Source: Candidatus Hatepunaea meridiana (GTDB lineage: Bacteria > Electryoneota > AABM5-125-24 > Hatepunaeales > Hatepunaeaceae). Taken from it: DNA of 64,000 bases. Both the position numbers and the translations under genes were made by a program. The stretch covers positions 14,800 through 78,799 of the forward strand of contig JAVCDD010000250.1 of NCBI GenBank assembly GCA_030765125.1, given 5' to 3'. Each line of letters starts with the position of its first letter. Position 1 is the stretch's first letter. The notes under the pieces are model-generated. The model worked only from the letters and a program-made list of their open reading frames with translations, was not told the DNA's origin and did no database searches. This document shows, piece after piece, positions 23,562-43,183 of the stretch.

Positions 23562-23633
23562 AAGTGCGAAAGTATGAAAGTACCAGAAAAACCTTGTGAT
23601 ATATTACTTTCACACTTTCACACTTTCGCACTT
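23562..23633. repeat. Imperfect hairpin built from tandem gaaagt / actttc words
   Basis: aagtgcgaaagtatgaaagta ... tactttcacactttcacactttcgcactt. The same words recur at 39601..39632 and 43233..43272. Confidence 0.7.
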
Positions 23634-25541: not shown

Positions 25542-25614
25542 AGCGAGAGACGGGATTTGAACCCGCGACATTCACGTTGGCAACGTGATACTCTACCAAC
25601 TGAGTTACTCTCGC
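25542..25614 (-). tRNA. tRNA-Gly (anticodon GCC)
   Basis: Manual fold: acceptor GCGAGAG/CTCTCGC, D arm ACTC-AGTTGGTA-GAGT, anticodon arm TCACG-TTGCCAA-CGTGA, T arm GCGGG-TTCAAAT-CCCGT, discriminator U. CCA is not encoded. Confidence 0.9.
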
Positions 25615-25832: not shown

Positions 25833-25905
<73 letters not shown>

Positions 25906-26270: not shown

Positions 26271-29200
26271 TTATCTAAGCAATACCATTCGCTTGACTTG
26301 TGAATCCATTCCTGATTCAAGACGGTAGAAATAGATACCGGAAGCGAAATTTTCCGATTCAAACAGAACGTTATGCTTCCCAGCGGGCATCTCATTATCT
26401 ATAAGAACAGCAACCTCCCTGCCGGTTATATCATAAATCTTTAATGTTGTTATACCTGCTATATCCAATGAATACCCAATCCGTGTCATTGAGTTGAATG
26501 GGTTCGGGTAGGCGTTGTCCAAACCGAATTCCAATGGGATCGATACATTGCCATTAATATTTGATCTTGCATTAACTCTAAACTCAATTGGCACAACAAC
26601 CTCTTCACCTCGGGCATTATGGTTGATAACCAACCCCATCTCGAACTCCTGACCATCTTCCAATCCTAAAGCGCTCATTATAACTGTAATAGGAGACTCA
26701 CCATTAGGTTGTACAATTCCATCACCTATGTTAACAATGAGAAACCGCGTATCGGGACCAATCTCATAAATTCTTAACATATCTTCATTAAAGCGATTAG
26801 ACTTATCCGCAATAGATGCTAAACAAGCCACCCCCTGCTCCCAGTTAAAACCAATAGACAATCCTTTTCCTTTATCCTGGTCCAAGATAGAAATATCACC
26901 CAATACCTCACTGCGTCTTGTGTAAGGGTTCACTTTTATCAACCTCATACGTCTATTTGTATCGTTAGCTGCCCAGTCCATTATGTAAAGCGGCATATTA
27001 TCATCGTCAACAGGATTCCAAGCCATACCCTTAATCGACGGTCTGCCGTCAGGTAGATCAACGTAAAACGAATCAACTATCCTCGCATCCATATTCATTT
27101 CATAAATTCTATGTAAATCGTGTGCCATAAAAATAGTTTCTGTTTCTGGTCGCCAGGCTAAAGCTCTTGCAAAGGGAAAATCATTTACCGACAAAGGTAC
27201 ATCAATATCACGAACACGATCACCATTAGTATCGAACTGAACCAGAACAACAGTATCCTCTCTTAAATCACCACCATACAAGTAAGTCCCATCATACGCT
27301 AAATCCATAAAACCAAAACTCTGATACGAGGGCTGCTCAAACGATCTGACTAATTGATTGTTCCGGTTAAACACACTAATCCTCTCTGAGCCGACTTGTC
27401 CAAGGTCTTCGGTATAAGTTACAAATACTTCATCTTCTACGAACTGACAACCAAATAGATATGGAACATCAAGAATCTCTCCTACTCCGATTTCACTAAT
27501 CTGCTCATACTCGGTATCTGAACCATCGCGATACCGACGACTCACGCTGTATTCAAGATCGCCAATACCATCGTTATAAACATCTATCAACTGTCCACCG
27601 CATCCTGAGTCAGGTCGAGCCTCACCTCTAATCGGATCGTCACTTAGTCTGATTAATGGATATGTCATTTGCATACCAATTTGGGTAGTACTGTCAGGAA
27701 AAATGTCAACACGAGCACTCATAGTGTTATAATCATCAAGCGCGAAAAACACTTCCTCCCTGCCTGCGGCAATATCATCAAACTCAAATCGTCCATTATC
27801 ATCAGTCAGTGTTTCATAGCCGCGTCTGGTGTATACTCGTACCCCTTCCAGAGTTTGACTTGTATCATCTGCCACGACCGCTCGTCCTGCTAATCCACCA
27901 TACTCGAGTATGACATCCATAGTGAAAAATAATGCTGTTTCGTCGACCAATTCCATACACCTATCCGAATATTCGCTCCAGTATACGTACTGAAGACCTC
28001 CAGTATTATCAAGGTTTTTCAATCCGATTGTACTGAACTGGTTATCATGACTGATTCCACGAAAATCTTCGAAAGTCTTATATTGTATCTTTATATCACC
28101 ATCGCCAGTAGAAGAGTGGTAGATACTCGGATCATATAATATCACCTGGAACTCAACCAGATGGTCATCTGCCGGTCGGTTATCACCATGAAATAACTGC
28201 ATATTTGACCATTCAACTATAAAACGTCCGTTATCTTCGTCATAGTAATAGTAAACGCCTCTCGCGTTTGTAGGTGAAGTGATTACCAAATCTTGCCACA
28301 TAACCGCAATTTGTGCATCCGGTCCCTGAATTCCCGGTATTGACCAATTCCGGAAAGTATGATACTTGGAATTGTCATTTCCAAAAGCTATCCAGCCGTT
28401 CGTGCAGACAATTAGTGTATCAAATTGCTGTCCATAATAGCGAAAAGAGAACGGAAGCTCAAGCACTGCAGAATCATCCTGCTCTTCCAGATAGTCTCTG
28501 AAATCTAACCTTGTTCCCATAAAATTGTTGTCTTCTTCTGAGGTATTGATCTCTATCCAATCATATACAGGTGTTCTATCTCCCCAACCTTCATCACCGG
28601 AATCAAAGCATATATAGCCGTATTCATCCGGTCCAAATGGATCGCGCACATCCGGCTGACCGATCAGTTCCTGGAAATATATAGTATCTCTAAAGTCTTC
28701 ATCATCATTACCGGCAAATAGATCCAATCTGAATCGAGCAGAATCTCCGGGGATTGCTATCGTATCCAATTCTACACGGAAAGCGCTATTATCAATCGGA
28801 GCATAACCTTCGTCCGGTCTCGGATCGATTGGAGGATATTCAACACTATCCTCAATTACTGTAATATCATCATTCAAACTGATCAGCGTTGCGGAGAACT
28901 CCTCAAGTCTTAAATCACCGTGGTTAGTAAGTACAGGAATCAAATCGACCGTTTGCCCGGGATCAAAAGTTTGGTCATCTCCAAAACGAATACGGCGGTC
29001 CGCAAGTAGATGACCTGCAGTAGGGAATGTAAAGGAATGTGACCATCTGCTATCGCCGGCTTCGACCTCTACGCCAATTCGCACTAACCTGTAAGCTTTA
29101 CTGGATTCGTGAATATACATCTCAAATTCTATTTCACGATCTTCACCTTCGGGTATCTCTTGCAACGAAAGTCTATCCTCGGAAAACGTTACCCAGGGAT

Positions 29201-31319
29201 CCTCTGTCGATAAAACAATTGAAAGGTCCTGAACATCTTCGTTACCGTTGTTGCTGAATGTTAAAGTTGTCGGCAGCGTTTCTCCGCTCCCGAATTTATC
29301 ATCTTCGTCATCTATGCTGAAATTATCCAGTTCAATCATAACATTCTGCGCTTGAACGTTAATAGCATCAATAACAGGCAAAGTATTCGGACGGGTGATA
29401 GTAAGCAGCAATTCTCCTTCCTCTAAGTAACCTGAAGCGAAAGTGAACCTTGCCCATCCATCATCACCGGGGAACGTCACCAAATGCACTTCATTATCCG
29501 GTTGCGATATACAAACGGTGGCATCTGCATATAAACCTTCTTCGGAATCAACCAGAATGTTTAAACCTGTCGCACCAAGAGTAACAGTCTCCGGATATTC
29601 AGCTTCAAGTTGAACCGGATACCGGGTAAAAACATTCACGGAAGGATCTCCCAGCAGGCGATAAACCATCAAAGTGGGAATTACAATCCCTTCAGTCACA
29701 TGCTTATCATACCTGAAATCCGCCGCAAAATTTATCTTACTTACGAGTTGAATCAAACCGGGTTGATTCATTTTTCTATAAGTGATGGCTCTGACAATCC
29801 AACCCAATATGCTCTGGTTAGTCTTGGTATTAGTCGGACCAAACATAGCATATACTGCTATTGGTCCGTTCGGAACTCGGGGAGTGCCTGAATGAAAGAA
29901 AGCTGCCTGTCTTCTACCTGAATGACACGTAACAGCACATACAAACGGATGTTTACGACCGGTATAAGTAGCCCGGTCTTCACTCATATCTATCATACTT
30001 CCCAAAAGCCAGCCACGGCTTAGCGCCAGACTTCTTCCATCTTCCAGGGCTTCTTGTGTCTCCTGTACCACACCTTCGTTATCATTCGGTCTTGCATATA
30101 AAGTGTCAACCCAGGTATAAGGTGGATCAGAGAAACGCATTAACCTGTCGTGTGTCCACCGTCCCAGTTGAAACATTGATGCGACTAACTCACCACCCTG
30201 AGCGCCAATGTCTTCAGCGGTAAAGATTGCTTTAGAGTACCAACTGTCATTAATATCTTCCTCATCATCAATATAAGGATCGCTTTCATATAGTATTGAC
30301 CTGTTGAAAGCTGCCTCTAACTGAGCATCACCATCTATATAAAAACGTCCTACGGTAATATCCGGTCCTAATATTTCATCACCGTCCATAAGAGAGAAAT
30401 AATGATCACCAAGATCACGTTCAGAGGGGAAATAGCTTCTGTTCTGGATTGTATCCTGTCCGATTATTATCAAGTGTGAAATAGGGATTTCAGGTGGATC
30501 GACATTATAATAATTATCCCGGATCAATTCTCTAATGTCTGCCGATCCCATTCCAACAGCGTCTTCTATTGCTTCGATATCCACTTGGTAACCCATCTGA
30601 CGTTTCCATTCGGCAAATTCAGCAATAGATAGTTCTGCGGCTCGAGACAAACTTGTATCATGAATAATAAGAATGCGCGCCAGGAACGATACTTGAATTT
30701 CGTCGTAGTCGCGGCGCGGTGGATTAAGCAGCAGTTGATCTATAACTCTTGCCATCTCGCTGCCCGGGGGATCATTAACCGGATTCACAGATCTATTTAT
30801 CGAAGCATCGGGAATAAAACTGATGTTTAAGGAAATATCCGTGTTCTCAACTACACTATTTCTGCTCTGATCAAACTGAACCGGATAGACGGTTATCGGA
30901 GTTATTGGCATCCCGCGGAAGATAATAGTCCCACCTACGGAAACGGGCTCCGGTGGAAATAGTTCTAAATGCGTTAGTTGTTCTGAATTAACTGATAACC
31001 GGTTAATAACGTCATACTTATCTATATCTTTATAAAGACAACTGGAACGGTTGTTGATATCTACCTCAACCCGGTGCCCGGGTGGTATCCTGATCCAGCG
31101 TCTGACAATCGGAATTTCTTTATTATCAGAGGTATAACTATAGCTCTCAATATTGCTGCCAGGATCAATTGTCATTTGAGCAATTGTCGGAAGTTGAAAA
31201 TCAAGTGAAAGCCCTGAATTTCCGTGATCCTGTACCTGGATATTAACTGATGTACTGGGTGACGCTCCGACTGCAAATGCAAGAAGCAGTACAAGAGCCG
31301 GTGCAAGAAGCCTGTTCAT
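26271..31319 (-). CDS. Very large secreted gingipain-like (peptidase C25 family) protein with a T9SS C-terminal sorting domain
   Basis: Signal peptide present. C25-like blocks: HLIIIGQD..., DHYFSLMDGDEILGPDITVGRFY..., SLALSRGW..., KHPFVCAVTCHSG. The C-terminal domain reads AYPNPFNSMTRIGYSL...IYDITGREVAVL...GIYFYRLE...RMVLLR. Confidence 0.75.
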   Translation of the reverse strand: MNRLLAPALVLLLAFAVGASPSTSVNIQVQDHGNSGLSLDFQLPTIAQMTIDPGSNIESYSYTSDNKEIPIVRRWIRIPPGHRVEVDINNRSSCLYKDIDKYDVINRLSVNSEQLTHLELFPPEPVSVGGTIIFRGMPITPITVYPVQFDQSRNSVVENTDISLNISFIPDASINRSVNPVNDPPGSEMARVIDQLLLNPPRRDYDEIQVSFLARILIIHDTSLSRAAELSIAEFAEWKRQMGYQVDIEAIEDAVGMGSADIRELIRDNYYNVDPPEIPISHLIIIGQDTIQNRSYFPSERDLGDHYFSLMDGDEILGPDITVGRFYIDGDAQLEAAFNRSILYESDPYIDDEEDINDSWYSKAIFTAEDIGAQGGELVASMFQLGRWTHDRLMRFSDPPYTWVDTLYARPNDNEGVVQETQEALEDGRSLALSRGWLLGSMIDMSEDRATYTGRKHPFVCAVTCHSGRRQAAFFHSGTPRVPNGPIAVYAMFGPTNTKTNQSILGWIVRAITYRKMNQPGLIQLVSKINFAADFRYDKHVTEGIVIPTLMVYRLLGDPSVNVFTRYPVQLEAEYPETVTLGATGLNILVDSEEGLYADATVCISQPDNEVHLVTFPGDDGWARFTFASGYLEEGELLLTITRPNTLPVIDAINVQAQNVMIELDNFSIDDEDDKFGSGETLPTTLTFSNNGNEDVQDLSIVLSTEDPWVTFSEDRLSLQEIPEGEDREIEFEMYIHESSKAYRLVRIGVEVEAGDSRWSHSFTFPTAGHLLADRRIRFGDDQTFDPGQTVDLIPVLTNHGDLRLEEFSATLISLNDDITVIEDSVEYPPIDPRPDEGYAPIDNSAFRVELDTIAIPGDSARFRLDLFAGNDDEDFRDTIYFQELIGQPDVRDPFGPDEYGYICFDSGDEGWGDRTPVYDWIEINTSEEDNNFMGTRLDFRDYLEEQDDSAVLELPFSFRYYGQQFDTLIVCTNGWIAFGNDNSKYHTFRNWSIPGIQGPDAQIAVMWQDLVITSPTNARGVYYYYDEDNGRFIVEWSNMQLFHGDNRPADDHLVEFQVILYDPSIYHSSTGDGDIKIQYKTFEDFRGISHDNQFSTIGLKNLDNTGGLQYVYWSEYSDRCMELVDETALFFTMDVILEYGGLAGRAVVADDTSQTLEGVRVYTRRGYETLTDDNGRFEFDDIAAGREEVFFALDDYNTMSARVDIFPDSTTQIGMQMTYPLIRLSDDPIRGEARPDSGCGGQLIDVYNDGIGDLEYSVSRRYRDGSDTEYEQISEIGVGEILDVPYLFGCQFVEDEVFVTYTEDLGQVGSERISVFNRNNQLVRSFEQPSYQSFGFMDLAYDGTYLYGGDLREDTVVLVQFDTNGDRVRDIDVPLSVNDFPFARALAWRPETETIFMAHDLHRIYEMNMDARIVDSFYVDLPDGRPSIKGMAWNPVDDDNMPLYIMDWAANDTNRRMRLIKVNPYTRRSEVLGDISILDQDKGKGLSIGFNWEQGVACLASIADKSNRFNEDMLRIYEIGPDTRFLIVNIGDGIVQPNGESPITVIMSALGLEDGQEFEMGLVINHNARGEEVVVPIEFRVNARSNINGNVSIPLEFGLDNAYPNPFNSMTRIGYSLDIAGITTLKIYDITGREVAVLIDNEMPAGKHNVLFESENFASGIYFYRLESGMDSQVKRMVLLR

Positions 31320-33176: not shown

Positions 33177-33950
33177 TTATTTGATCAAAACCACCCGTTC
33201 AACCTGCTTCTGTCCCTCAATCTCAATTGAAACCAAGTACAATCCGTTGTGTAAACCTTCACCATCAAGAATAAAATGATGATATCCGGATTTCAAAAAT
33301 TCTCCAAGTAGTGTTCTGACCTTCCTGCCGGATATATCATAGATATTGAGAATTACATAAGCTGGCTTATGAAGCGTGAATTCAATTTGAGCATTTGAAT
33401 TAAAAGGATTTGGGAAAATCCTCTCAAGTTGAAACTGCTGTGGAGATAGGTTTGGTTCTTTATCCTTTATTCTAAGGGTTGCTTCGACGACGATTAAAGC
33501 CAGATTATGAAAAGTCAATTCATTCCCCTGAAAGAACTCCACTGACATGTTCAGTTCCCAATGGTGTACCGGGTCCCAATAACGCAAAAGGACTTCTTCA
33601 CCATCCTCAAAACCCTCGACTTCATCGGTAAAAGAATCATCTCCCCATGCCGCCAGCCCCCAACCTATCTCTGAATCAGGATCAAGTCGCACTACACCCC
33701 CAAAGACGCCTTCAGGAGTGAAACACGCCATCTCAGAGCCTTCGACAACCTCTAATCCATATATCTCCCTGAAAAGAATAGACATATTGGAGTCAGTACG
33801 CCGATGATCCGGCCAATGTTCACCGTTCAATTCCTGATGCTGTTCAATATCTCTCAGACTTGTATTAAAATCTACCTGAGCGATAAGGACAACAGGTGAA
33901 AATAAAAGGAAAATTAGTATTACCAGCCTAATGTAATTCATAATATCCAA
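33177..33950 (-). CDS. Secreted protein of unknown function with a T9SS C-terminal sorting domain
   Basis: Signal peptide present. The C-terminus reads IFPNPFNSNAQIEFTL...IYDISGRKVRTL...GLYLVSIE...RVVLIK. Confidence 0.7.
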   Translation of the reverse strand: MDIMNYIRLVILIFLLFSPVVLIAQVDFNTSLRDIEQHQELNGEHWPDHRRTDSNMSILFREIYGLEVVEGSEMACFTPEGVFGGVVRLDPDSEIGWGLAAWGDDSFTDEVEGFEDGEEVLLRYWDPVHHWELNMSVEFFQGNELTFHNLALIVVEATLRIKDKEPNLSPQQFQLERIFPNPFNSNAQIEFTLHKPAYVILNIYDISGRKVRTLLGEFLKSGYHHFILDGEGLHNGLYLVSIEIEGQKQVERVVLIK

Positions 33951-35012: not shown

Positions 35013-36104
35013 TTACTTGTTTTCCACTATAAAACCCTTCATAAACCCAACCAGATCCTCGATAGCTTCCGGTGGGATGGCATTGTACATTGAGACGCGA
35101 ATGCCGCCGACGCTGCGGTGACCTTTCAGACCGTTGAAACCGGCTGCCTTGCCTTCAGCGATGAACTTAGCTTCAAGTTCTTCGTTCGGCAGACGCATAC
35201 AGACATTCATCCAACTGCGGCTATCCTTGTCGACAGTTCCACGATAGAAGTCTAAATTGTCATCCATAAATCCATATAGGAGATCGGCTTTCTTTCTGTT
35301 ACGATTCTCCATCGCTTCAAGACCGCCCATTTCGTCAATCCACGTCAACACCCGGTTCATAAACCAGATACCGAAGGTGTTGGGTGTATTATAAAGTGAA
35401 TTCTTATCAACGTGGATTTGATACGTCAACATAGTTGTAATACCCTCACGGGCTGTCTTGAGCAGATCGTCACGAAGTATCACTAATGTTACGCCGGATG
35501 GTCCCAGGTTCTTCTGAGCGCCACCGAACATTAGTGCAAACGGTTTCGTATTAAAGCGATGTGAGAAAAAGTCGCTCGACATATCGCAGATAATCGGTAC
35601 GTCGCCGGTATCGGGAAATTCAAGGAATTGCGTTCCTTTGATAGTGTTATTGCTGGTGATATGAACGTAGGCAGCGCCATCGGTCAGCTTGAGTTCTTCC
35701 TGCCTGGGCAAGCGCGTGAAGCCTACTTCCTTACCGTCAAAGGCAACATTGATATTACCGAACAACTTGGCTTCCTTAATAGCCTTGGTTGACCAGGAGC
35801 CGGTATTGATATAATCAGCGGTTTTCCCTTCACCAAGGAAATTCATCGGCGCCATTGCGAATTGCAGCGAAGCGCCTCCCTGCAGGAAAAGAACATGATA
35901 TTCATCGCCCAATCCAAGCAATTTTTTGACCAGGGAAACGGTATTATTATGGATTACATCGTATTCCTTGGAACGATGCGACCATTCCATCAGGTTCATA
36001 CCGGTATTCTGGTAGTTGAACCAGCCCTCGTTAATATGTTCGAGAACCTCAAGCGGCACACCAGCCGGACCAGGATTGAAGTTCCAGATTCTGTCGTATT
36101 TCAT
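35013..36104 (-). CDS. serC: Phosphoserine aminotransferase
   Basis: NFNPGPAGVP N-terminus, LFLQGGASLQF, the GAQKNLGPSG PLP-lysine block and the C-terminal GGIRVSMYNA. Confidence 0.95.
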   Translation of the reverse strand: MKYDRIWNFNPGPAGVPLEVLEHINEGWFNYQNTGMNLMEWSHRSKEYDVIHNNTVSLVKKLLGLGDEYHVLFLQGGASLQFAMAPMNFLGEGKTADYINTGSWSTKAIKEAKLFGNINVAFDGKEVGFTRLPRQEELKLTDGAAYVHITSNNTIKGTQFLEFPDTGDVPIICDMSSDFFSHRFNTKPFALMFGGAQKNLGPSGVTLVILRDDLLKTAREGITTMLTYQIHVDKNSLYNTPNTFGIWFMNRVLTWIDEMGGLEAMENRNRKKADLLYGFMDDNLDFYRGTVDKDSRSWMNVCMRLPNEELEAKFIAEGKAAGFNGLKGHRSVGGIRVSMYNAIPPEAIEDLVGFMKGFIVENK

Positions 36105-36352
36105 TTTTGTTGACCTCGCTTAAGTGTAAAGATTAGTTGTTTACTTTAATATACGAAATTTTTCACAGCAGATAAAACGGATTAAGCAGATAGTTAAGAG
36201 TTTATTCCGATAATTTGGTTTGGTGAGTTAAGAATTCAACGTTTAGAGTTCGACCTTTAGGTTGTTTTTCTTTCCCGAACTAACGAAGCTAACTCTGAAC
36301 TCCGCATTCCGAACTCCAATTTGTTTAATCGGTATGATATACGGTTAGTAAT

Positions 36353-36916
36353 TTACCTAAAAACATCCTGTATGCGCTCTTCTAAATCCTTAAGTTCCGG
36401 ACATCGTTCTTTCAATCCGTTATAATTACGTAAGGTTTCACCAATCAGAATATCGCGACCGCCTCCAGCCCGCCGCGAGTCACCATATTCCGCCAGAAAC
36501 GGATCAAATACGTTTTCTTTTACAGAAACATCACTTCTGATATCAAACCAGCTTTCAGATAGTTTATCTTGATGACCTGCCAACAGCCAGATTTCAATTT
36601 CTTCTTTTGCAGCACAGCATAGGAGTCGAACTCCTTTCTTCTCAGCAATATCCTCAAGCCTTACGAACTCACTACTCCTGTCCTTTCCATCAGCATCAGG
36701 CAGGAACAACAACAGATCGAAATGGGAATACCCATCCATAATCTGATCAACCAAGAGCGATTTAATATGCTCATAGCCTTTTGCTTTTGGATTAGAAAGA
36801 ACACTAACCCTTGCGTTGGGTTTATTACAGGCTCGCATAATCCTGCTGACAAGCGGCTGTAAGATGTATCCGTTATAGGTTGGATCTTCTGGAATTACCT
36901 TGACACGAAAACTCAC
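36353..36916 (-). CDS. Small TOPRIM-like protein (DUF4276/DUF4435-like), partner of the upstream ATPase
   Basis: I moved the start to the GTG at 36916, preceded by GGAGGA at a 6-nt spacing and overlapping the ATPase stop as GTGA. Motifs: an early acidic VKVIPEDP, a DxD in LLLFLPDADGKD and a later EEIEIWLLAGH. Family assignment is by eye only. Confidence 0.5.
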   Translation of the reverse strand: MSFRVKVIPEDPTYNGYILQPLVSRIMRACNKPNARVSVLSNPKAKGYEHIKSLLVDQIMDGYSHFDLLLFLPDADGKDRSSEFVRLEDIAEKKGVRLLCCAAKEEIEIWLLAGHQDKLSESWFDIRSDVSVKENVFDPFLAEYGDSRRAGGGRDILIGETLRNYNGLKERCPELKDLEERIQDVFR

Positions 36917-38175
36917 AACGCATCCTCCAGCCAACCCTCTGTAAACAGGTCGCCAAGTGACTGTTTATCTATGATTTCGAGGAGACGTGGGATTTCTGAT
37001 AATGGAGTAATAGTCGATGCGCCTGTTTCCTCATCGCGCTTACAGATAAAAGTTGTCTCATAATCCTCTTTCTTGAGCCATTGTAAAACCAGCGGTGAAT
37101 GAGTTGTTGCTATTACCTGGCATCTCTCACTCGAACGTGTTTTCAACAATTCGACCAGCAAACGTAATCTGCTTGGGTGAATGCCGTTCTCTATTTCTTC
37201 AATTGTAATTATATGAGGCATATCAGGTTGGAAGAAAGCTGCGGTTATAGCAGCAAAACGCAATGTCCCATCAGATAGAATAGGCGCCGGATACTTCACA
37301 CCCCTTTCGACTGTTGCAAACATTGGTTCACCCAATGCCCCGGACAATACTGTTACATCATCAAGCTCTGTTGGAGTCAATTGTTTAAGCCAACTTAAAT
37401 ATGCTGATTTTGTGTATTCATCACTAATGATAGTATTTACGAGTGCTGCAAAATTCTCACCGTGATCACCCATTCTTTTTGCGTAAGCAGATTTCGAGTA
37501 AGTGCGTAATATCGAGAGTAAAGGATCAAATCTTTGAATGTCTATTAACGTTAATTGTGCGTGATATGCGCTATTCCTATGAGTTGATGAAATAATTTTG
37601 TTATTTAAATCTTTATCCTTCAAGAGTTGATGCAGTATTGGTAGTGATCTCGCAAACTTAAGTTGAGTTCTTCCTTCTCGTCGACTTCCACAATAAGAAA
37701 CCTTGATCGTTTTATAGTCGAATTCTTCGCTTTTAAAAACTGACTTTCTATCATAAAGGAATTCTTCCTTACATACGACCTTTTTTTTACTTGAAAAGGC
37801 TATTGAATAGTTGCAATCTACGTATGTGATTCTTTCCCTAAAGTGTATTGGAGCTTCTGCAGGTAGACGCATTCCAACTGAAAGAAGGATTTTGTCTTTT
37901 TTAAGTTTAGGTAGAGAATTTCCTTTACTAATGAAGGACGCCTTTTCACTACCTCCTCTTATTCCTTCCCATACTTCACTCGTCGCGCTCTTAGGTTTCC
38001 CATTAAGTATCTCATCAAACGTATACCCATACCCAATGCCCTGTAACACTCTCAGTGCATCAAAGAAATTAGACTTCCCACTGGCATTTGTACCGATGAA
38101 AAGGTTAAACTTGCCGAGCTTTAGTTTTACTTTTTTCAGGCTTTTGAAGCCTTCAATTTCAATTTTATTAATCAT
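36913..38175 (-). CDS. ABC/SMC-type AAA ATPase (AAA_15/AAA_21-like) with no transmembrane or nuclease domain
   Basis: Start IEIEGFKSLK, Walker A GTNASGKSN, ABC signature LSDGTLRF, Walker B IITIEEIENGIHP and H-loop ATTHSP. Confidence 0.8.
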   Translation of the reverse strand: MINKIEIEGFKSLKKVKLKLGKFNLFIGTNASGKSNFFDALRVLQGIGYGYTFDEILNGKPKSATSEVWEGIRGGSEKASFISKGNSLPKLKKDKILLSVGMRLPAEAPIHFRERITYVDCNYSIAFSSKKKVVCKEEFLYDRKSVFKSEEFDYKTIKVSYCGSRREGRTQLKFARSLPILHQLLKDKDLNNKIISSTHRNSAYHAQLTLIDIQRFDPLLSILRTYSKSAYAKRMGDHGENFAALVNTIISDEYTKSAYLSWLKQLTPTELDDVTVLSGALGEPMFATVERGVKYPAPILSDGTLRFAAITAAFFQPDMPHIITIEEIENGIHPSRLRLLVELLKTRSSERCQVIATTHSPLVLQWLKKEDYETTFICKRDEETGASTITPLSEIPRLLEIIDKQSLGDLFTEGWLEDAL

Positions 38176-38187
38176 AACACTACCTCC

Positions 38188-39534
38188 TTATCCTACCCCC
38201 AACACCCCCGCCACAAACGTAACCCCCACAAACACTGCCGAAATTAGCAGCAATACCGTAGCCAATCCAACGCTTATCTTTAACCCCGGACCACCTCGTT
38301 TTAATTCTTCCAGCAAACTCTTCGGCTTCCAGCGGAAAATCGTGAACAGAACCATAAAGAAACCGCCCAACGGCAGCATATACTTAAATGACAGGTAATC
38401 AAAAAAGTCAAACAGGTTCATCTTGAAGATAATGATTTCCTTCAGAGCCCCAAAGGAAAGCGCTGACGGCACTCCAACGAGGAAAATCAGAAACCCAAAT
38501 GCAATTGAAGCTTTTCTTCTCGACCATCCTTTCTGATCGATGAAATATGCAGTTACCACTTCGAGTAATGACATCCCCGAAGTAAGAGCTGCAATGGATA
38601 ACAGCGCGAAGAACAGGAATCCCATTATATTTCCACCCGGCATCATCGAAAAGATTGCCGGTAATACGTGAAAGACCAGACCCGGTCCACCGGCTGGCTC
38701 GAATCCCATAGCAAATACCGCCGTAAAAATCGCAATGCCTGCCAGCAGCGCAACGCCTGTATCTGCCACTATAATCCAGAGCGAACTTTTGACCAGGTCT
38801 TCCTTCTCACTCAGGTAAGAACCGTAAGTCAACATCGCTCCCATACCAAGCGACAAAGTAAAGAACGCATGCCCCATCGCCACGAGCATCGCATTGGCGG
38901 TCAGCTTGCTGAAATCAGGCACAAACAAGAATTTCAGCCCAGCGTCGGCGCCTTCGAGTGTAAGACCACGTACAATCAATAGCAGGATAATTACAAAAAG
39001 CGTCGGCATTAAAATACGATTCCAACGCTCAATACCAACCTTAACACCTTTACTGACCACAAAGATACAAAGAAACATAAAGACGGCGTGAGAAAGAACT
39101 GGCCATATCGGGCTGCTGCTGTAAGCGGTGAATGCTTCACCGGCGATTTCGGGCGAGCTGAAATCCTTGAAACCGAATGCAACTGCTTTGTACATATAGG
39201 TCAACGTCCATCCGGCAACCACGCTGTAGTATGACAGGATTATAAAACCGCAAAGCACACCCATAGCGCCTATCAGAAAATAGGGACTACTCGGAGCCAG
39301 TTTCTGAAACGCTCCAACCGGGTTGAGCTGAGTCTTACGCCCGATTGAGAATTCAATCAGCATAACCGGCAGACCGATAAGCAGGATTGAAATCAGGTAA
39401 AAGAGCACAAATGCCGCTCCACCGTACATCCCGGTAATAAAAGGAAACTTCCAGATATTGCCCAGCCCGACCGCCGACCCCACCGCCGCCAGCACAAACC
39501 CAAGCCTCGACCCCCAATGTTCACGAACTTTCAT
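38188..39534 (-). CDS. Sodium-dependent transporter, neurotransmitter:sodium symporter (SNF) family
   Basis: WGSRLGFVLAAVGSAVGLGNIWKFPF N-terminal signature and a multi-helix hydrophobic profile. Confidence 0.9.
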   Translation of the reverse strand: MKVREHWGSRLGFVLAAVGSAVGLGNIWKFPFITGMYGGAAFVLFYLISILLIGLPVMLIEFSIGRKTQLNPVGAFQKLAPSSPYFLIGAMGVLCGFIILSYYSVVAGWTLTYMYKAVAFGFKDFSSPEIAGEAFTAYSSSPIWPVLSHAVFMFLCIFVVSKGVKVGIERWNRILMPTLFVIILLLIVRGLTLEGADAGLKFLFVPDFSKLTANAMLVAMGHAFFTLSLGMGAMLTYGSYLSEKEDLVKSSLWIIVADTGVALLAGIAIFTAVFAMGFEPAGGPGLVFHVLPAIFSMMPGGNIMGFLFFALLSIAALTSGMSLLEVVTAYFIDQKGWSRRKASIAFGFLIFLVGVPSALSFGALKEIIIFKMNLFDFFDYLSFKYMLPLGGFFMVLFTIFRWKPKSLLEELKRGGPGLKISVGLATVLLLISAVFVGVTFVAGVLGVG

Positions 39535-39904
39535 TTTTGTATCCTGTTTTTACTATTTGTTTGTTCAAAGTTCCAAGTTCAGAGTTCAACCTTCAGGTTG
39601 TTTCTTTCACACTTTGACACTTTCGCACTTTTCTATAAACGTAAAGGTAATTATTAGCATTGCCACTGTCAACAGATTATTCGGATAATCTGAGGACAGT
39701 ATATCTATTTTATGAATACTCTTTTAATGATCGACGAGTTATAGAGAACAGGTATAATGTCCCCCGGATTCAACGAAAATAATGTAAAAAACTCTTGCTA
39801 TTAATGTAATTTTTCATATATATTAATTTATCGAGTAATTTAACCTGTTTCTTTCCACATTTTAACTCAAGATTTGTAATTCGTTTTCTTTGGTAATGGT
39901 GATA

Positions 39905-42900
39905 ATGAAAAGTAAGAAATTATATACACAGAAATCAAACCTTATTCCTATTGAATCACTCCTATGGGGAATCTCTGTTCTATTCATAATTGTCCTACCG
40001 TTTTCTTTGATAGCTCAGACTGAGGTTGAGGGGGAAGTGTCGGGTGTGTGGACAGAAGAGAATAGTCCCTATTTGGTGACTGATACTTTGGTAGTCTGTG
40101 ATGATGACACCCTTATTATCGAAGACGGTGTGATTGTTAATATTAATTCTAACCTACCATTACTCATACATGGAACGATGCAAGTCAGAGGAACTGAAGA
40201 AAACCAGGTTATATTTCAAAAGTCTGAAAACCAAGAAGAAGAGTGGGCTGGCATTTGCTTCGACAAACATGAAGGTTTATCAAGTTTAGACAATTGTGAA
40301 ATTACGGAATGTAATATTGGTATATCTCTCAAGCGAGGTAATAATCTTGAATTAACCGGATGCAATATTGCATGCTCTGAAAATGCAATAGAAGCTGATG
40401 ATAATAGCGGTTCCAATATTACTGCAGACGGATGCGAGTTAAGTTCGGGCGAGGAGGGAGTCACAATACATCTTTTCAACGCTGGATTAATCGCCAGGAG
40501 CTGTAGGTTCTTTAGAGATGAAGGTGAATCTGTTTTCAATGTTCATCCCGGAGGGCTAAACTTGACAGATTGCACTATAGAAGGTGACATTCGTATTTTT
40601 ATGGGGGTTCTCGAGTTAACGGATTGCCGCCAAACCAGACCTGACAGCATAGAATTTATAACCTGTGAGGCAACAGGTGTTCGTGGTTATATTCAAGACT
40701 CCATAATAGAGGGAAATGTTACTATCGATGGAGCAGGACAGTCTTTAAATGTGACAGGATGCGAAATTCAAAGAAATCTTACTCTTGGACACCTAAATGG
40801 ACTAATTGACAGAAATCAGATAGGTGATGATGATGTTGAAGGGGGAATAGGAGCCAGTGATTGCAATTTAACTATATCTAATAATACAATAGCGGGAGGT
40901 GTATCCCTGAATGAAAACAGATATACAGTTAATAATAACACAATGAATGGATTGTATTTATACGGAGAGGGAAATTACATTATCAGGAATAATACCGGCA
41001 TAGAAAGATTGCTGGTTCGAGGTGAATCTAGTATTAATATCCAGAATTGCAGATTGAGTGGTGAAATAGAGTTGCGAAATCGTGGAAGTACGATATTTAC
41101 AAAGAATATCATAGAAGCAGAAATCAATATAAGTAGCAGTGATGTTAATTTTACACAGAATACAATCGTCTCCCCCTATCCTGATGAAGCAATTTTGCCT
41201 TCTACTTTTGAAATAGGTACTCTCACAAGCCTGCAACTTAACAGCAATATAATTGTGGGAAATCCAGCAAGGTCGATGATTGATATCGGATATTTAGAAC
41301 AACCTGAAAATCTTGAAATTCACCATAATTGTCTATGGGGGATGTTGTATCTCTTTGATATGTTTCTTCCGGACACGCTGAATTATTTAATCGATTCAAC
41401 AAATCTGATTACGAACCCTTACTTAAGAAACATTGATCCTTTAAATCCGGATTTACAGCCTATCTCACCCTGTATTAATTCCGGCGATCCCGACCTTCGA
41501 CAAGATCGTGATGGAACCAGAGCGGATATAGGCGCCAACTTCTTCGACCGGCGTTTGGATCATCCTCCAGGTATACATTCCCCTGAACTTGCATTTGCAC
41601 AGAGGGAACATGACTTCAGATACGTGGTGAGTGGAAACGATGATCACGATGTATCCTTTCGTGTGTTAGACTTACCTGAATGGCTGCGTTCGGGCGAGCG
41701 CCGGGATGTTGTGGAAGATTCCCTGGTTCTCGAAGGGAGAGTGCCTTTTGATCAGGACGACTTTTCATTCAGGGTGATTGTAATCGACGATCAGGATAAC
41801 ACAGAAGAACTCAATGTAGATGTTCGCGTCGTTGAAGGTACACCGATTGGTGGGAAAATGTCAGGAAGATTGCGTCAGGCTCAATCTCCTTTCTTTATGT
41901 ACGACCATATAATTATAGAGGAAGATGAAACATTACTTATTGAACCTGGTTGCGATATTGTGGTAAGATATAGAGGACTAATGGGGCGAGAGCAGTTACA
42001 GATGGTAGTTTTCGGTGATCTTTTAATGCACGGAACCGAAGAGGACTCGATCAGGTTCACTCCGGAAGAACTTGATAGAGAGTTAGGGCGTTGGACAGGC
42101 ATTAGACTCTTAAAAACAGGGGGAAACTATGGTTTTGAATATATTTCAATTCAAAATGCAAATGTATCTCTATTCCCAATGAATTCTCAAAGCTTCTCAG
42201 TATTCAACTCAAGGTTTTCAAGCGTAACTTTAGATATTCGCAACACGAGTGAGGTGGATGTGCGGTATAATGAGTTCATCAATTGTGGAGGTAGAGCTAT
42301 TTCAATTAAGGGCGCTGAAGAAGCTGTAATTACAGACAATTTATTTCAGGATGGAAGCAGAGGACTCTCACTACAGATGTCATCGATTATTTTAGTAGAA
42401 AGGAACACCTTTAAAAATATATCTTCCCGTAGTATATATGCCTGGTATGTTGATAATCTGTTTATTTCGAGAAATACTTTTTTCGAGAGTGAAGGTTTTT
42501 ATACAACAGCTGGCGACATCCTTATTGAACATTGTACTTTTCATAATTCAGGTACTTGCTCAATTCTCTCACCAGATTCATATCGTGTAAATAATTGTAC
42601 CTTTACAGGTGGTCAGGAAACTGCATTTAGAGCTGGATTACAACCAGATATTGAAGAATCCATAACGATAGAATATACAAATTTCTATGGTTATGACCAT
42701 CCTGTTGAAAATCCAATAGAGTTGAGTGAGGGGTGTTTATCGGTTGATCCATTGTTTGTAGATCAGGATAACGGTAATTTCTGGCTGATGGCTAACAGTC
42801 CTTTAATAGACGCAGGGAATCCAGTTGATCCGCTTGATCCTGACTCAACACGTGGGGATATAGGAGCATTTTTCTGGACTCCAGACGGTTGCACCGAAGT

Positions 42901-43183
42901 TGACGAAAATATAAAAGGTGGTAATTATTTAAGCTATGCAGTTTACCCTAATCCGTTTAATGCATCAGTTCGGATAAATTACAGCATTGAAAAGGCAGGA
43001 GTTACCAATATACACCTATTCGACTTAAACGGTCGTAAAGTAGCAACACTAATAGAAGATGTTTCAAATAGCGGTACTCACAGTGTTATATGGAATGCTG
43101 GAAATATACCATCAGGTCTGTATATAATTAGATTGAGTGCCTCCGGTGAGGAAAGATTCAGGAAGTTGTTATTAGTAAGATAG
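39905..43183 (+). CDS. Secreted right-handed beta-helix (PbH1-repeat) protein with a T9SS C-terminal sorting domain
   Basis: I chose the ATG at 39905 (MKSKKLY...); the track ORF opens at a TTG at 39890. Repeated N-x-(I/F)-x-x-N / C-x-I motifs fit parallel beta-helix turns. The C-terminus reads VYPNPFNASVRINYSI...LFDLNGRKVATL...GLYIIRLS...KLLLVR. Confidence 0.8.
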   Translation: MKSKKLYTQKSNLIPIESLLWGISVLFIIVLPFSLIAQTEVEGEVSGVWTEENSPYLVTDTLVVCDDDTLIIEDGVIVNINSNLPLLIHGTMQVRGTEENQVIFQKSENQEEEWAGICFDKHEGLSSLDNCEITECNIGISLKRGNNLELTGCNIACSENAIEADDNSGSNITADGCELSSGEEGVTIHLFNAGLIARSCRFFRDEGESVFNVHPGGLNLTDCTIEGDIRIFMGVLELTDCRQTRPDSIEFITCEATGVRGYIQDSIIEGNVTIDGAGQSLNVTGCEIQRNLTLGHLNGLIDRNQIGDDDVEGGIGASDCNLTISNNTIAGGVSLNENRYTVNNNTMNGLYLYGEGNYIIRNNTGIERLLVRGESSINIQNCRLSGEIELRNRGSTIFTKNIIEAEINISSSDVNFTQNTIVSPYPDEAILPSTFEIGTLTSLQLNSNIIVGNPARSMIDIGYLEQPENLEIHHNCLWGMLYLFDMFLPDTLNYLIDSTNLITNPYLRNIDPLNPDLQPISPCINSGDPDLRQDRDGTRADIGANFFDRRLDHPPGIHSPELAFAQREHDFRYVVSGNDDHDVSFRVLDLPEWLRSGERRDVVEDSLVLEGRVPFDQDDFSFRVIVIDDQDNTEELNVDVRVVEGTPIGGKMSGRLRQAQSPFFMYDHIIIEEDETLLIEPGCDIVVRYRGLMGREQLQMVVFGDLLMHGTEEDSIRFTPEELDRELGRWTGIRLLKTGGNYGFEYISIQNANVSLFPMNSQSFSVFNSRFSSVTLDIRNTSEVDVRYNEFINCGGRAISIKGAEEAVITDNLFQDGSRGLSLQMSSIILVERNTFKNISSRSIYAWYVDNLFISRNTFFESEGFYTTAGDILIEHCTFHNSGTCSILSPDSYRVNNCTFTGGQETAFRAGLQPDIEESITIEYTNFYGYDHPVENPIELSEGCLSVDPLFVDQDNGNFWLMANSPLIDAGNPVDPLDPDSTRGDIGAFFWTPDGCTEVDENIKGGNYLSYAVYPNPFNASVRINYSIEKAGVTNIHLFDLNGRKVATLIEDVSNSGTHSVIWNAGNIPSGLYIIRLSASGEERFRKLLLVR

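Follow-up and report, generated by a model that had tools for sequence, protein, structure and literature searches.

A translationally coupled ABC-type ATPase and small DUF4276-like protein in Candidatus Hatepunaea meridiana: a candidate two-gene conflict module resident among housekeeping genes

Introduction

Pairs in which an ABC ATPase is joined by a Toprim-type protein are a recurring design in bacterial immunity and include the OLD, Gabija and PARIS systems. The Toprim domains of AriB, from PARIS, and of P2 OLD are tRNases which arrest translation. GajA, from Gabija, cuts DNA. Two further domains, DUF4276 and RloB, have been described as members of the Toprim superfamily with a catalytic glutamate and a DxD motif (PMC12065111), and the small protein HEC-01B, catalogued in PADLOC, as a Toprim-like protein whose metal site is of the OLD type (bioRxiv 10.1101/2024.01.29.577857). 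Here we analyse a pair of adjacent genes, encoding an ABC-type ATPase and a small DUF4276-like protein, in a stretch of 64,000 nucleotides (nt) from Candidatus Hatepunaea meridiana, a Calditrichota-like member of a salt lake community (assembly GCA_030765125.1, contig JAVCDD010000250.1, positions 14,800 to 78,799 of the forward strand). This stretch is referred to below as the window and coordinates are those of the window. Both genes of the pair, together with all motifs within them, lie on its minus strand.

We interpret the pair as a self-contained two-gene conflict module in which the ATPase would act as a sensor and the small protein as a Toprim-type nuclease effector, most likely directed against phages or mobile elements. 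We assign this interpretation a probability of roughly 0.6; the anti-phage function in particular is a reasoned guess, drawn by analogy with better characterized systems. An initial annotation of the window, made from the DNA sequence, had proposed a similar architecture together with possible relationships to PARIS, Septu and Gabija. Some of its claims are borne out by the analysis presented here while others required revision.

Results

The gene pair

The ATPase gene (36913..38175) extends from an ATG at 38175 to a TGA at 36913 and encodes 420 amino acids (aa), as judged from the open reading frame and the surrounding sequence. The small gene, whose 187-aa product is DUF4276-like and putatively of the Toprim type, occupies 36353..36916 with a GTG start at 36916-36914 and a TAA stop ending at 36353. 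Within the tetranucleotide GTGA (36913..36916) the small gene begins and the ATPase gene ends, a start/stop overlap taken as translational coupling. A GGAGGA ribosome-binding site for the small gene is located within the ATPase coding sequence, in the EGWLE codons (36923..36928), 7 nt upstream of the GTGA. These features, and all of the protein motifs described below, are present where the initial annotation had placed them.

The program used to list open reading frames preferred an alternative TTG start for the small gene at 36934, which would give a protein of 193 aa. This was rejected: 40 of 40 homologues have their start, M/V/L-S-F, where the NTGA overlap lies, which makes 187 aa the correct length. 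With homologues of the small protein down to E=1e-84, the two open reading frames are not a chance arrangement.

Conservation of the pairing was inspected at 80 metagenome loci and one genome locus, of which 77 were informative. The ATPase gene lies directly upstream of the small gene at all 46 loci with enough upstream sequence, and its 3' part is found there at all 31 loci with partial upstream sequence. At every junction of the related loci there is an NTGA overlap preceded by TGGAGG, and this conserved hexanucleotide encodes EGWLE, the conserved C-terminus of the ATPase. The ATPase and the small gene are an obligate pair, translationally coupled as the initial annotation had stated for the single locus. 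The overlapping stop and start, the internal ribosome-binding site and the constant co-occurrence together imply that the two proteins are made together.

Upstream, the gap between the stop of the neighbouring symporter gene (38188) and the ATPase ATG (38175) is only 12 nt. It includes a GGAGG ribosome-binding site for the ATPase (38183..38187, minus strand), and no promoter-like site was found in it. A gap of this size cannot accommodate a separate promoter, and the pair is probably read from the symporter transcript, which in this genome would start upstream of the symporter.

The ATPase

In Pfam, the large protein matches AAA_21 (2.3e-28; 100.6 bits, cut-off 27) and AAA_15 (5.4e-18; 66.2 bits, cut-off 32.1), and also SMC_N. 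Its best PADLOC matches are four PDC-M07A models, aligned over the full length at 1.1e-60 to 3e-57, and these are followed by HEC-01A (1.8e-39), generic AriA, AbiLi, mad3, Old and GajA. The highest-ranking profile matches are without exception ATPases of defence or candidate-defence systems. The NCBIfam MAD3 model also aligns end-to-end (8.7e-37), with 127 bits against a cut-off of 420. When a profile of 17 orthologues was compared with the PDB, the best match was the T. scotoductus OLD protein (6p74, 2e-11), and PtuA, GajA, SMC, RecF and Rad50 heads were also recovered. These matches are confined to the Walker A and the signature/Walker B segments, and there were no AriA structures among them.

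Judged from these profiles and from its motifs, the protein is a soluble ABC/SMC-type ATPase with a complete catalytic motif set, in agreement with the initial annotation. Motif invariance was assessed on 17 orthologues, including copies carried by plasmids. The Walker A motif is GTNASGKSN (residues 28-36; 38068..38094), in which N30, G33, K34, S35 and N36 are invariant, and the ABC signature is LSDGTLRF (residues 300-307; 37255..37278), with S301, G303, L305, R306 and F307 invariant. These are accompanied by a Walker B motif, IITIEEIE (residues 322-329; 37189..37212; E326 and E327 invariant), and an H-loop, ATTHSP (residues 356-361; 37093..37110; H359, S360 and P361 invariant).

Between the Walker A and signature motifs is a hypervariable insert (residues about 81-220; 37516..37935), a candidate sensor region. 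Across 21 orthologues, column identity to the window ATPase is 10-31% in the insert compared to 60-93% in the catalytic core. Sensor inserts with this pattern have been described in defence ABC ATPases (bioRxiv 10.1101/2024.01.29.577857). The DNA specifying the insert also has the lowest guanine-plus-cytosine (GC) content of the locus (0.36-0.38).

The small protein

In NCBIfam, neither the small protein nor its relatives fall into any family. At the family level, 36 of the 40 closest homologues used here match DUF4276 (PF14103) at E<=1, the best at 7.5e-6, and no other family competes for them; HEC-01B models are matched by 32 of 40 (best 1.9e-7). For more distant members (26-64% identity), DUF4276 is found in 8 of 57 at E<=0.01 and RloB in 2 of 57 at about 2e-3, while a precomputed PF14103 call is carried by only 2 of 120 homologues among the matches listed. 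The sequence comparisons place the family as a neighbour or outlier of DUF4276 and not as a core member. It is a small and distinct family at the edge of DUF4276: a profile search retrieved only 599 clusters (50% identity) at E<=1e-3 among 1.84 billion representatives. The small protein has 612 database homologues.

The AlphaFold (AF2) model of the small protein is confident, with a pLDDT (predicted local distance difference test) of 93.4. Residues 1-120 form a predicted beta-alpha-beta-alpha-beta-alpha-beta-alpha core and are followed by a helical C-terminal domain. In the order of its secondary structures, the core is compatible with the three-layer alpha/beta core of Toprim proteins, in which four strands alternate with helices. 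The acidic residues singled out by the initial annotation proved to be conserved in alignments and follow strands in the model. The first motif, VIPEDP (residues 7-12; 36881..36898), contains E10 and D11 at the Toprim glutamate position. Together with D11, E10 directly follows beta1 (residues 4-9), and it is invariant in 57 sequences down to 26% identity. The second, LPDADG (residues 72-77; 36686..36703), carries the D74-x-D76 pair at the Toprim DxD position, directly after beta3 (68-72); D74 is invariant and D76 at least 90% conserved. The third, EIEIW (residues 106-110; 36587..36601), is a candidate second metal-binding site in which E106, E108 and W110, located after beta4, are at least 90% conserved in the broad alignment. 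In the model, this succession of E, DxD and ExE corresponds to the Toprim motif layout.

In the PDB, neither sequence nor profile searches with the small protein gave a meaningful match, and alignment of the family profile with P2 Old as a single sequence, using hhalign, gave no match (probability 0.1). The small protein is therefore best described as putatively Toprim-like, a proposal supported by family linkage and motif geometry and not confirmed by fold comparison.

Distribution

The best non-self homologues of the small protein are 58-70% identical and come from bins of candidate division KSB1, Terriglobales, Thermoanaerobaculia and Planctomycetes. The sparse family has a scattered taxonomy, including these four groups together with an actinobacterial and a cyanobacterial plasmid. 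The two plasmid copies, at 31-35% identity, keep the ATPase-small arrangement: one is carried by a 50-kb Rathayibacter plasmid, between relaxase and coupling-protein genes, and the other by Brasilonema pBOCT1, near an integrase gene.

At two loci from long-read assemblies (L163, 6101-9004, and L164, 7824-9004) the ATPase was split by the gene caller while the small gene is intact. L164 has a frame change near ATPase residue 280, and in L163 a second AAA_15/AAA_21 ATPase of 576 aa lies just upstream. The split calls may represent assembly or sequencing errors or real decay.

Genomic context

In the window, the pair is flanked on one side by serC (35013-36104) and serA and on the other by a gene for a Na+-dependent transporter, the symporter mentioned above (38188-39534), all identified by NCBIfam; the flanks named in the initial annotation are thus correct. 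The genes within 10 kb on either side are of housekeeping or secreted-protein type only and include those for DUF1015, type IX secretion cargo proteins, arginine decarboxylase, an M20 peptidase, a sigma-54 response regulator, SmpB and a class I (Trp/Tyr-type) aminoacyl-tRNA synthetase (Pfam tRNA-synt_1b). Three proteins with type IX secretion C-terminal sorting domains surround the serA-serC-pair-symporter block: a 1682-aa C25-type peptidase (26271-31319), a 257-aa protein (33177-33950) and a 1097-aa beta-helix protein (39890-43183). Two tRNA genes on the minus strand (25542-25614 and 25833-25905; Rfam) are unrelated to the pair.

The initial annotation had described the pair as more AT-rich than its neighbours. 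This holds for the two immediate neighbours only, serC and the symporter gene being unusually GC-rich (46.9% and 48.3%), but not for the window as a whole: the two genes of the pair (39.0% and 43.0%) fall inside the distribution of window genes (43.0 +/- 3.1%; window 42.1%), so there is no compositional evidence of recent insertion. Only short, chance-level repeats were found when target-site duplications or terminal inverted repeats were sought around the two genes.

The possibility that the pair is part of a syntenic core with serC and the symporter, raised in the initial annotation, was also addressed. At 80 of 80 related (Calditrichota-like) symporter loci the pair is absent beside the symporter, a comparison which covers the slot alone. 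In three of these loci the slot after the symporter contains a gene for a 431-aa protein (L006, 11566-12861; L008, 11561-12859; L004, 11360-12655), which we take from its N-terminus to be a glutamate dehydrogenase. It is followed by serC-serA in L006 and L008 and by other genes in L004, and there is no copy of it in the window. In L043 the slot is occupied by another protein, of 449 aa, and then by serC-serA, while mevalonate-pathway genes follow the symporter in L012 and L015. The presence of other genes in the slot of relatives indicates that the slot is variable and that the pair is not a conserved core here.

Repeats around the locus

A 23-nt hairpin repeat, AGAGTTCRACCTTYAGGTTGTTT, is present in exactly two copies in the window, with 0 expected by chance. 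Both are in the same (plus strand) orientation, the first at 36245..36267, where a spacer separates the small gene from serC, and the second at 39581..39603, upstream of the symporter. They bracket the symporter-ATPase-small unit and are reported as context only. The copies differ at one stem position at which pairing is kept (a G-T wobble vs an A-T pair). Metagenome contig depth at both copies is 4-6x the local depth, which indicates that the element is multi-copy in the community; the repeat is absent from the related loci. It could be a repetitive extragenic palindromic (REP)-like element, a regulatory site shared by the regions upstream of the symporter and of serC, or a recombination scar. 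An apparent empty-site variant, suggested by a 'skip' joint (36202->39563) in one metagenome run, was rejected as it rests on 27 nt of repeat.

Other families of spacer repeats are represented in the window by palindromic AGCGACACTCTTGTCGCT hairpins, by CACTTTCACACTTTCGCACTT runs and by CACCGCAGAG..GCAAAGA units, among others. Short spacer repeats are located at 23594, 31388, 33092, 39591, 43231, 43751, 43795, 46398, 54731, 54775, 55554 and 56953.

Discussion

If the pair is a conflict module, its mode of action may be modelled on PARIS AriA/AriB and on P2 OLD. The ATPase would dimerise around ATP and keep the nuclease inactive, while its variable insert would sense a phage protein or an abnormal nucleic acid. 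In an ATP-dependent step, the ATPase would then release or activate the metal-dependent nuclease. This might cut tRNA, like AriB and OLD, or DNA, like GajA, and the growth of the infected cell would stop.

A number of observations weigh against a defence module of this type. To our knowledge, no member of the pair's family has shown anti-phage activity. The window small protein has no Pfam match at E<=1 and its PADLOC match, to HEC-01B (2e-4), covers profile positions 12-106 of 204, about half of the model. Foldseek searches with the full model and with the 120-residue core returned no Toprim chain in the top 50. The matches obtained (PDB, BFVD) were to generic three-layer alpha/beta proteins only, with E of at least 0.003 and TM about 0.5, the best being to lumazine synthase, nucleoside deoxyribosyltransferase, SLOG and PTS IIB-type folds; being non-significant and generic, they neither confirm nor exclude a Toprim fold. 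The Toprim/DUF4276-like nature claimed for the small protein in the initial annotation stands as regards family matches and conserved acidic motifs, but has no counterpart in the Foldseek results and does not extend to DUF4435.

The surroundings of the pair point in the same direction. No integrase, transposase or defence gene is present within 10 kb of the pair on either side in the window, the GC content of the pair is not anomalous, and no homologue was found in phage genomes or viral contigs. Of the 149 genes nearest to the pair at 56 non-redundant homologous loci, the great majority are metabolic or housekeeping, with defence-like genes only scattered among them (PrimPol/AEP-TOTE, one type III methyltransferase, one restriction endonuclease, two dGTPase-like and two PIN proteins). 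The suggestion of an inserted defence islet is not upheld by these data. In one lineage, considered below, placement between eno and gpmI looks like stable vertical inheritance. Finally, HEC-01, the nearest candidate to have been tested, protected against none of the phages tried (bioRxiv 10.1101/2024.01.29.577857).

The most probable alternative, although unlikely, is a housekeeping pair engaged in nucleic-acid maintenance (RecF/RecR-like, SbcCD-like or an RNA-processing ATPase with a Toprim protein) and expressed with central-metabolism operons. In addition to the almost wholly housekeeping context, the normal GC content of the pair and the lack of protection by HEC-01, this is suggested by a lineage, including a Terriglobales bin, with the gene order eno-ATPase-small-(DinB-like)-gpmI (L165-L167, 6417-11225; L098; L171, 3281-8917). 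The order is kept in members whose enolases are 74-94% identical and whose pairs are 62-91% identical. From the eno stop to the ATPase start there are 14 nt, as compared to 12 nt from that of the symporter in the window, and in some members the stop of the small gene overlaps the gpmI start (ATGA). Operon integration of this degree is unusual for a putative defence module. A shared linkage to serA was also considered and dropped, as the window SerA and the 2-hydroxyacid dehydrogenase encoded downstream at the Terriglobales locus share only 30% identity. The ATPase N-terminus does resemble RecF, SMC and Rad50 heads, but the likeness to RecF/SMC extends over only some 45 residues around Walker A, and the top profile matches of the protein all belong to defence or candidate-defence ATPases. 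A maintenance function also fits poorly with an insert whose hypervariability is typical of conflict sensors, with a family so sparse, no member of which lies beside the symporter at any of the 80 related loci, and with plasmid copies adjacent to relaxase, coupling-protein or integrase genes. Contexts of the pair vary between loci, even within the Terriglobales, where another bin has the pair at a different place.

An addiction cassette resembling toxin-antitoxin systems, with a nuclease toxin restrained by the ATPase and maintained by post-segregational killing, is improbable, and would be only partly a rival since addiction and defence roles are not mutually exclusive. The tight two-gene unit with its conserved translational coupling, the existence of plasmid copies and the solitary occurrence without defence neighbours would suit such a cassette, and in Pfam the name given to AAA_21 mentions a type IV toxin-antitoxin toxin. 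However, an antitoxin would not typically be an ABC ATPase of 420 aa with a hypervariable insert, known pairs of ATPase and Toprim proteins (PARIS, OLD) are infection sensors, and most copies of the present pair are chromosomal with stable contexts.

It is equally improbable that the pair is an ABC-sensor/Toprim-nuclease switch hard-wired into housekeeping operons, as opposed to an island-borne defence pair with fast turnover. This view is derived from the lack of a promoter of its own, the ATPase start 12-14 nt past the symporter or enolase stop, and, in the eno-gpmI lineage, the overlap with gpmI and the vertical inheritance. If correct, expression and perhaps the trigger would be coupled to central metabolism or to the way in which the host operon is translated, a logic different from that of PARIS, OLD and Gabija.

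The least probable alternative is a small protein which is not a nuclease but a non-catalytic adaptor or regulator with a Rossmann-like fold, its acidic residues binding nucleotide or metal to some other end: this would be in keeping with best Foldseek matches outside Toprim, the empty hhalign comparison with P2 Old and the weak DUF4276 matches (best 7.5e-6), but none of the fold matches is significant, DUF4276, HEC-01B and RloB are the only sequence families matched by many members, and E, DxD and ExE after beta1, beta3 and beta4 are the defining Toprim pattern.

We therefore retain the two-gene conflict module as the preferred interpretation, with the qualification that it is a solitary module whose genomic habit is atypical and not that of a defence island. 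At the homologous loci the upstream neighbour is co-directional in 28 of 36 cases and within 150 bp in 21 of 36 (from crude gene calls). The picture which emerges is of an accessory cassette which occasionally moves and is then stably resident inside housekeeping operons.

We know of no experimentally validated stand-alone member of the DUF4276-type branch; the one tested candidate, HEC-01, showed nothing. The pair described here, compact at 1.8 kb, with clear catalytic residues and a sharply bounded insert that could set specificity, would lend itself well to asking whether Toprim proteins of the DUF4276 type are nucleases, and on which substrates they act. The consistent placement of the pair outside defence islands also means that guilt-by-association screens will miss such modules. 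As a single locus, it represents a further member of a catalogued kind and no new principle.

Comparison with known systems

Septu, Gabija and PARIS, the three systems with which the initial annotation had compared the pair, can all be set aside as regards membership. For Septu, the PtuA score is 25 bits, far below the cut-off of 500, and there is no HNH partner at the pair. OLD nucleases and Gabija GajA have the same two modules, fused there and encoded by separate genes here. The GajA match of the ATPase is only 3.7e-16 and partial, and Gabija was rejected in the absence of a fused Toprim domain and a helicase: there is no TOPRIM_OLD match and no GajB, nor any helicase within 10 kb.

Several systems with separate genes are more similar in arrangement. 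AbiL, like the present pair, combines an AAA_21-type ATPase (AbiLi) with a small Toprim-superfamily protein (AbiLii, RloB-type). The AbiLi match is 1.3e-27 but partial, and RloB is recovered only in 2 of 57 distant members (0.0018); AbiL was rejected as the window protein itself has no RloB match. In the eight-gene, methylation-associated MADS system, Mad3 and Mad4 form a pair of an ABC ATPase and a DUF4276-type protein. Unlike MADS, the Mad3 score of the present ATPase is well short of its cut-off (127 bits vs 420), MAD4 is matched by 1 of 57 members of the small-protein family (E=0.07), and there is no methyltransferase or other mad gene near the pair (+/-10 kb in the window), so that this assignment too was rejected. 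PD-T4-4 was rejected as a relative because its effector is a PD-(D/E)xK nuclease.

PDC-M07, an untested multi-gene defence candidate of PADLOC of which we found no mention in the literature, provides the closest ATPase, four PDC-M07A models aligning with it end-to-end. PDC-M07B matches neither the small protein nor any of its 40 homologues at E<=1. With the A component matched and the B component undetected, the pair was not assigned to PDC-M07.

PARIS is composed of the ABC ATPase AriA and the DUF4435 Toprim tRNase AriB and, like the pair, is a two-gene unit with separate genes for the ATPase and a Toprim-type effector. The AriA-named model PDLC02980 matches the ATPase at 1.8e-31, over the same coordinates as Pfam AAA_21, which shows this match to be generic; a second, PDLC02979, gives a partial match (2.1e-20). 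AriB is about 35 kDa as compared to the 187-aa small protein here, and PARIS is often found on phage satellites whereas the pair's family is found on no viral sequence. Neither the small protein nor its 40 homologues match DUF4435 or AriB, and PARIS was rejected on these grounds. It is nevertheless the best mechanistic model for the pair, with a sensor ATPase, a released nuclease and tRNA cleavage.

HEC-01 (PADLOC 'Hma-embedded candidate 01') has the same two-gene architecture, an ABC ATPase, HEC-01A, with a Toprim protein, HEC-01B. As in HEC-01, the ATPase matches several HEC-01A models (to 1.8e-39), and HEC-01B provides the only PADLOC matches of the small-protein family. Unlike HEC-01, the ATPase is far closer to PDC-M07A (1e-60), and the pair does not lie inside an Hma system. 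The A match is clear while the B match is weak for the window protein (2e-4, half of the model), with a stronger B signal at the family level. The pair is thus catalogued in part by PADLOC candidate models, and its architecture is already known.

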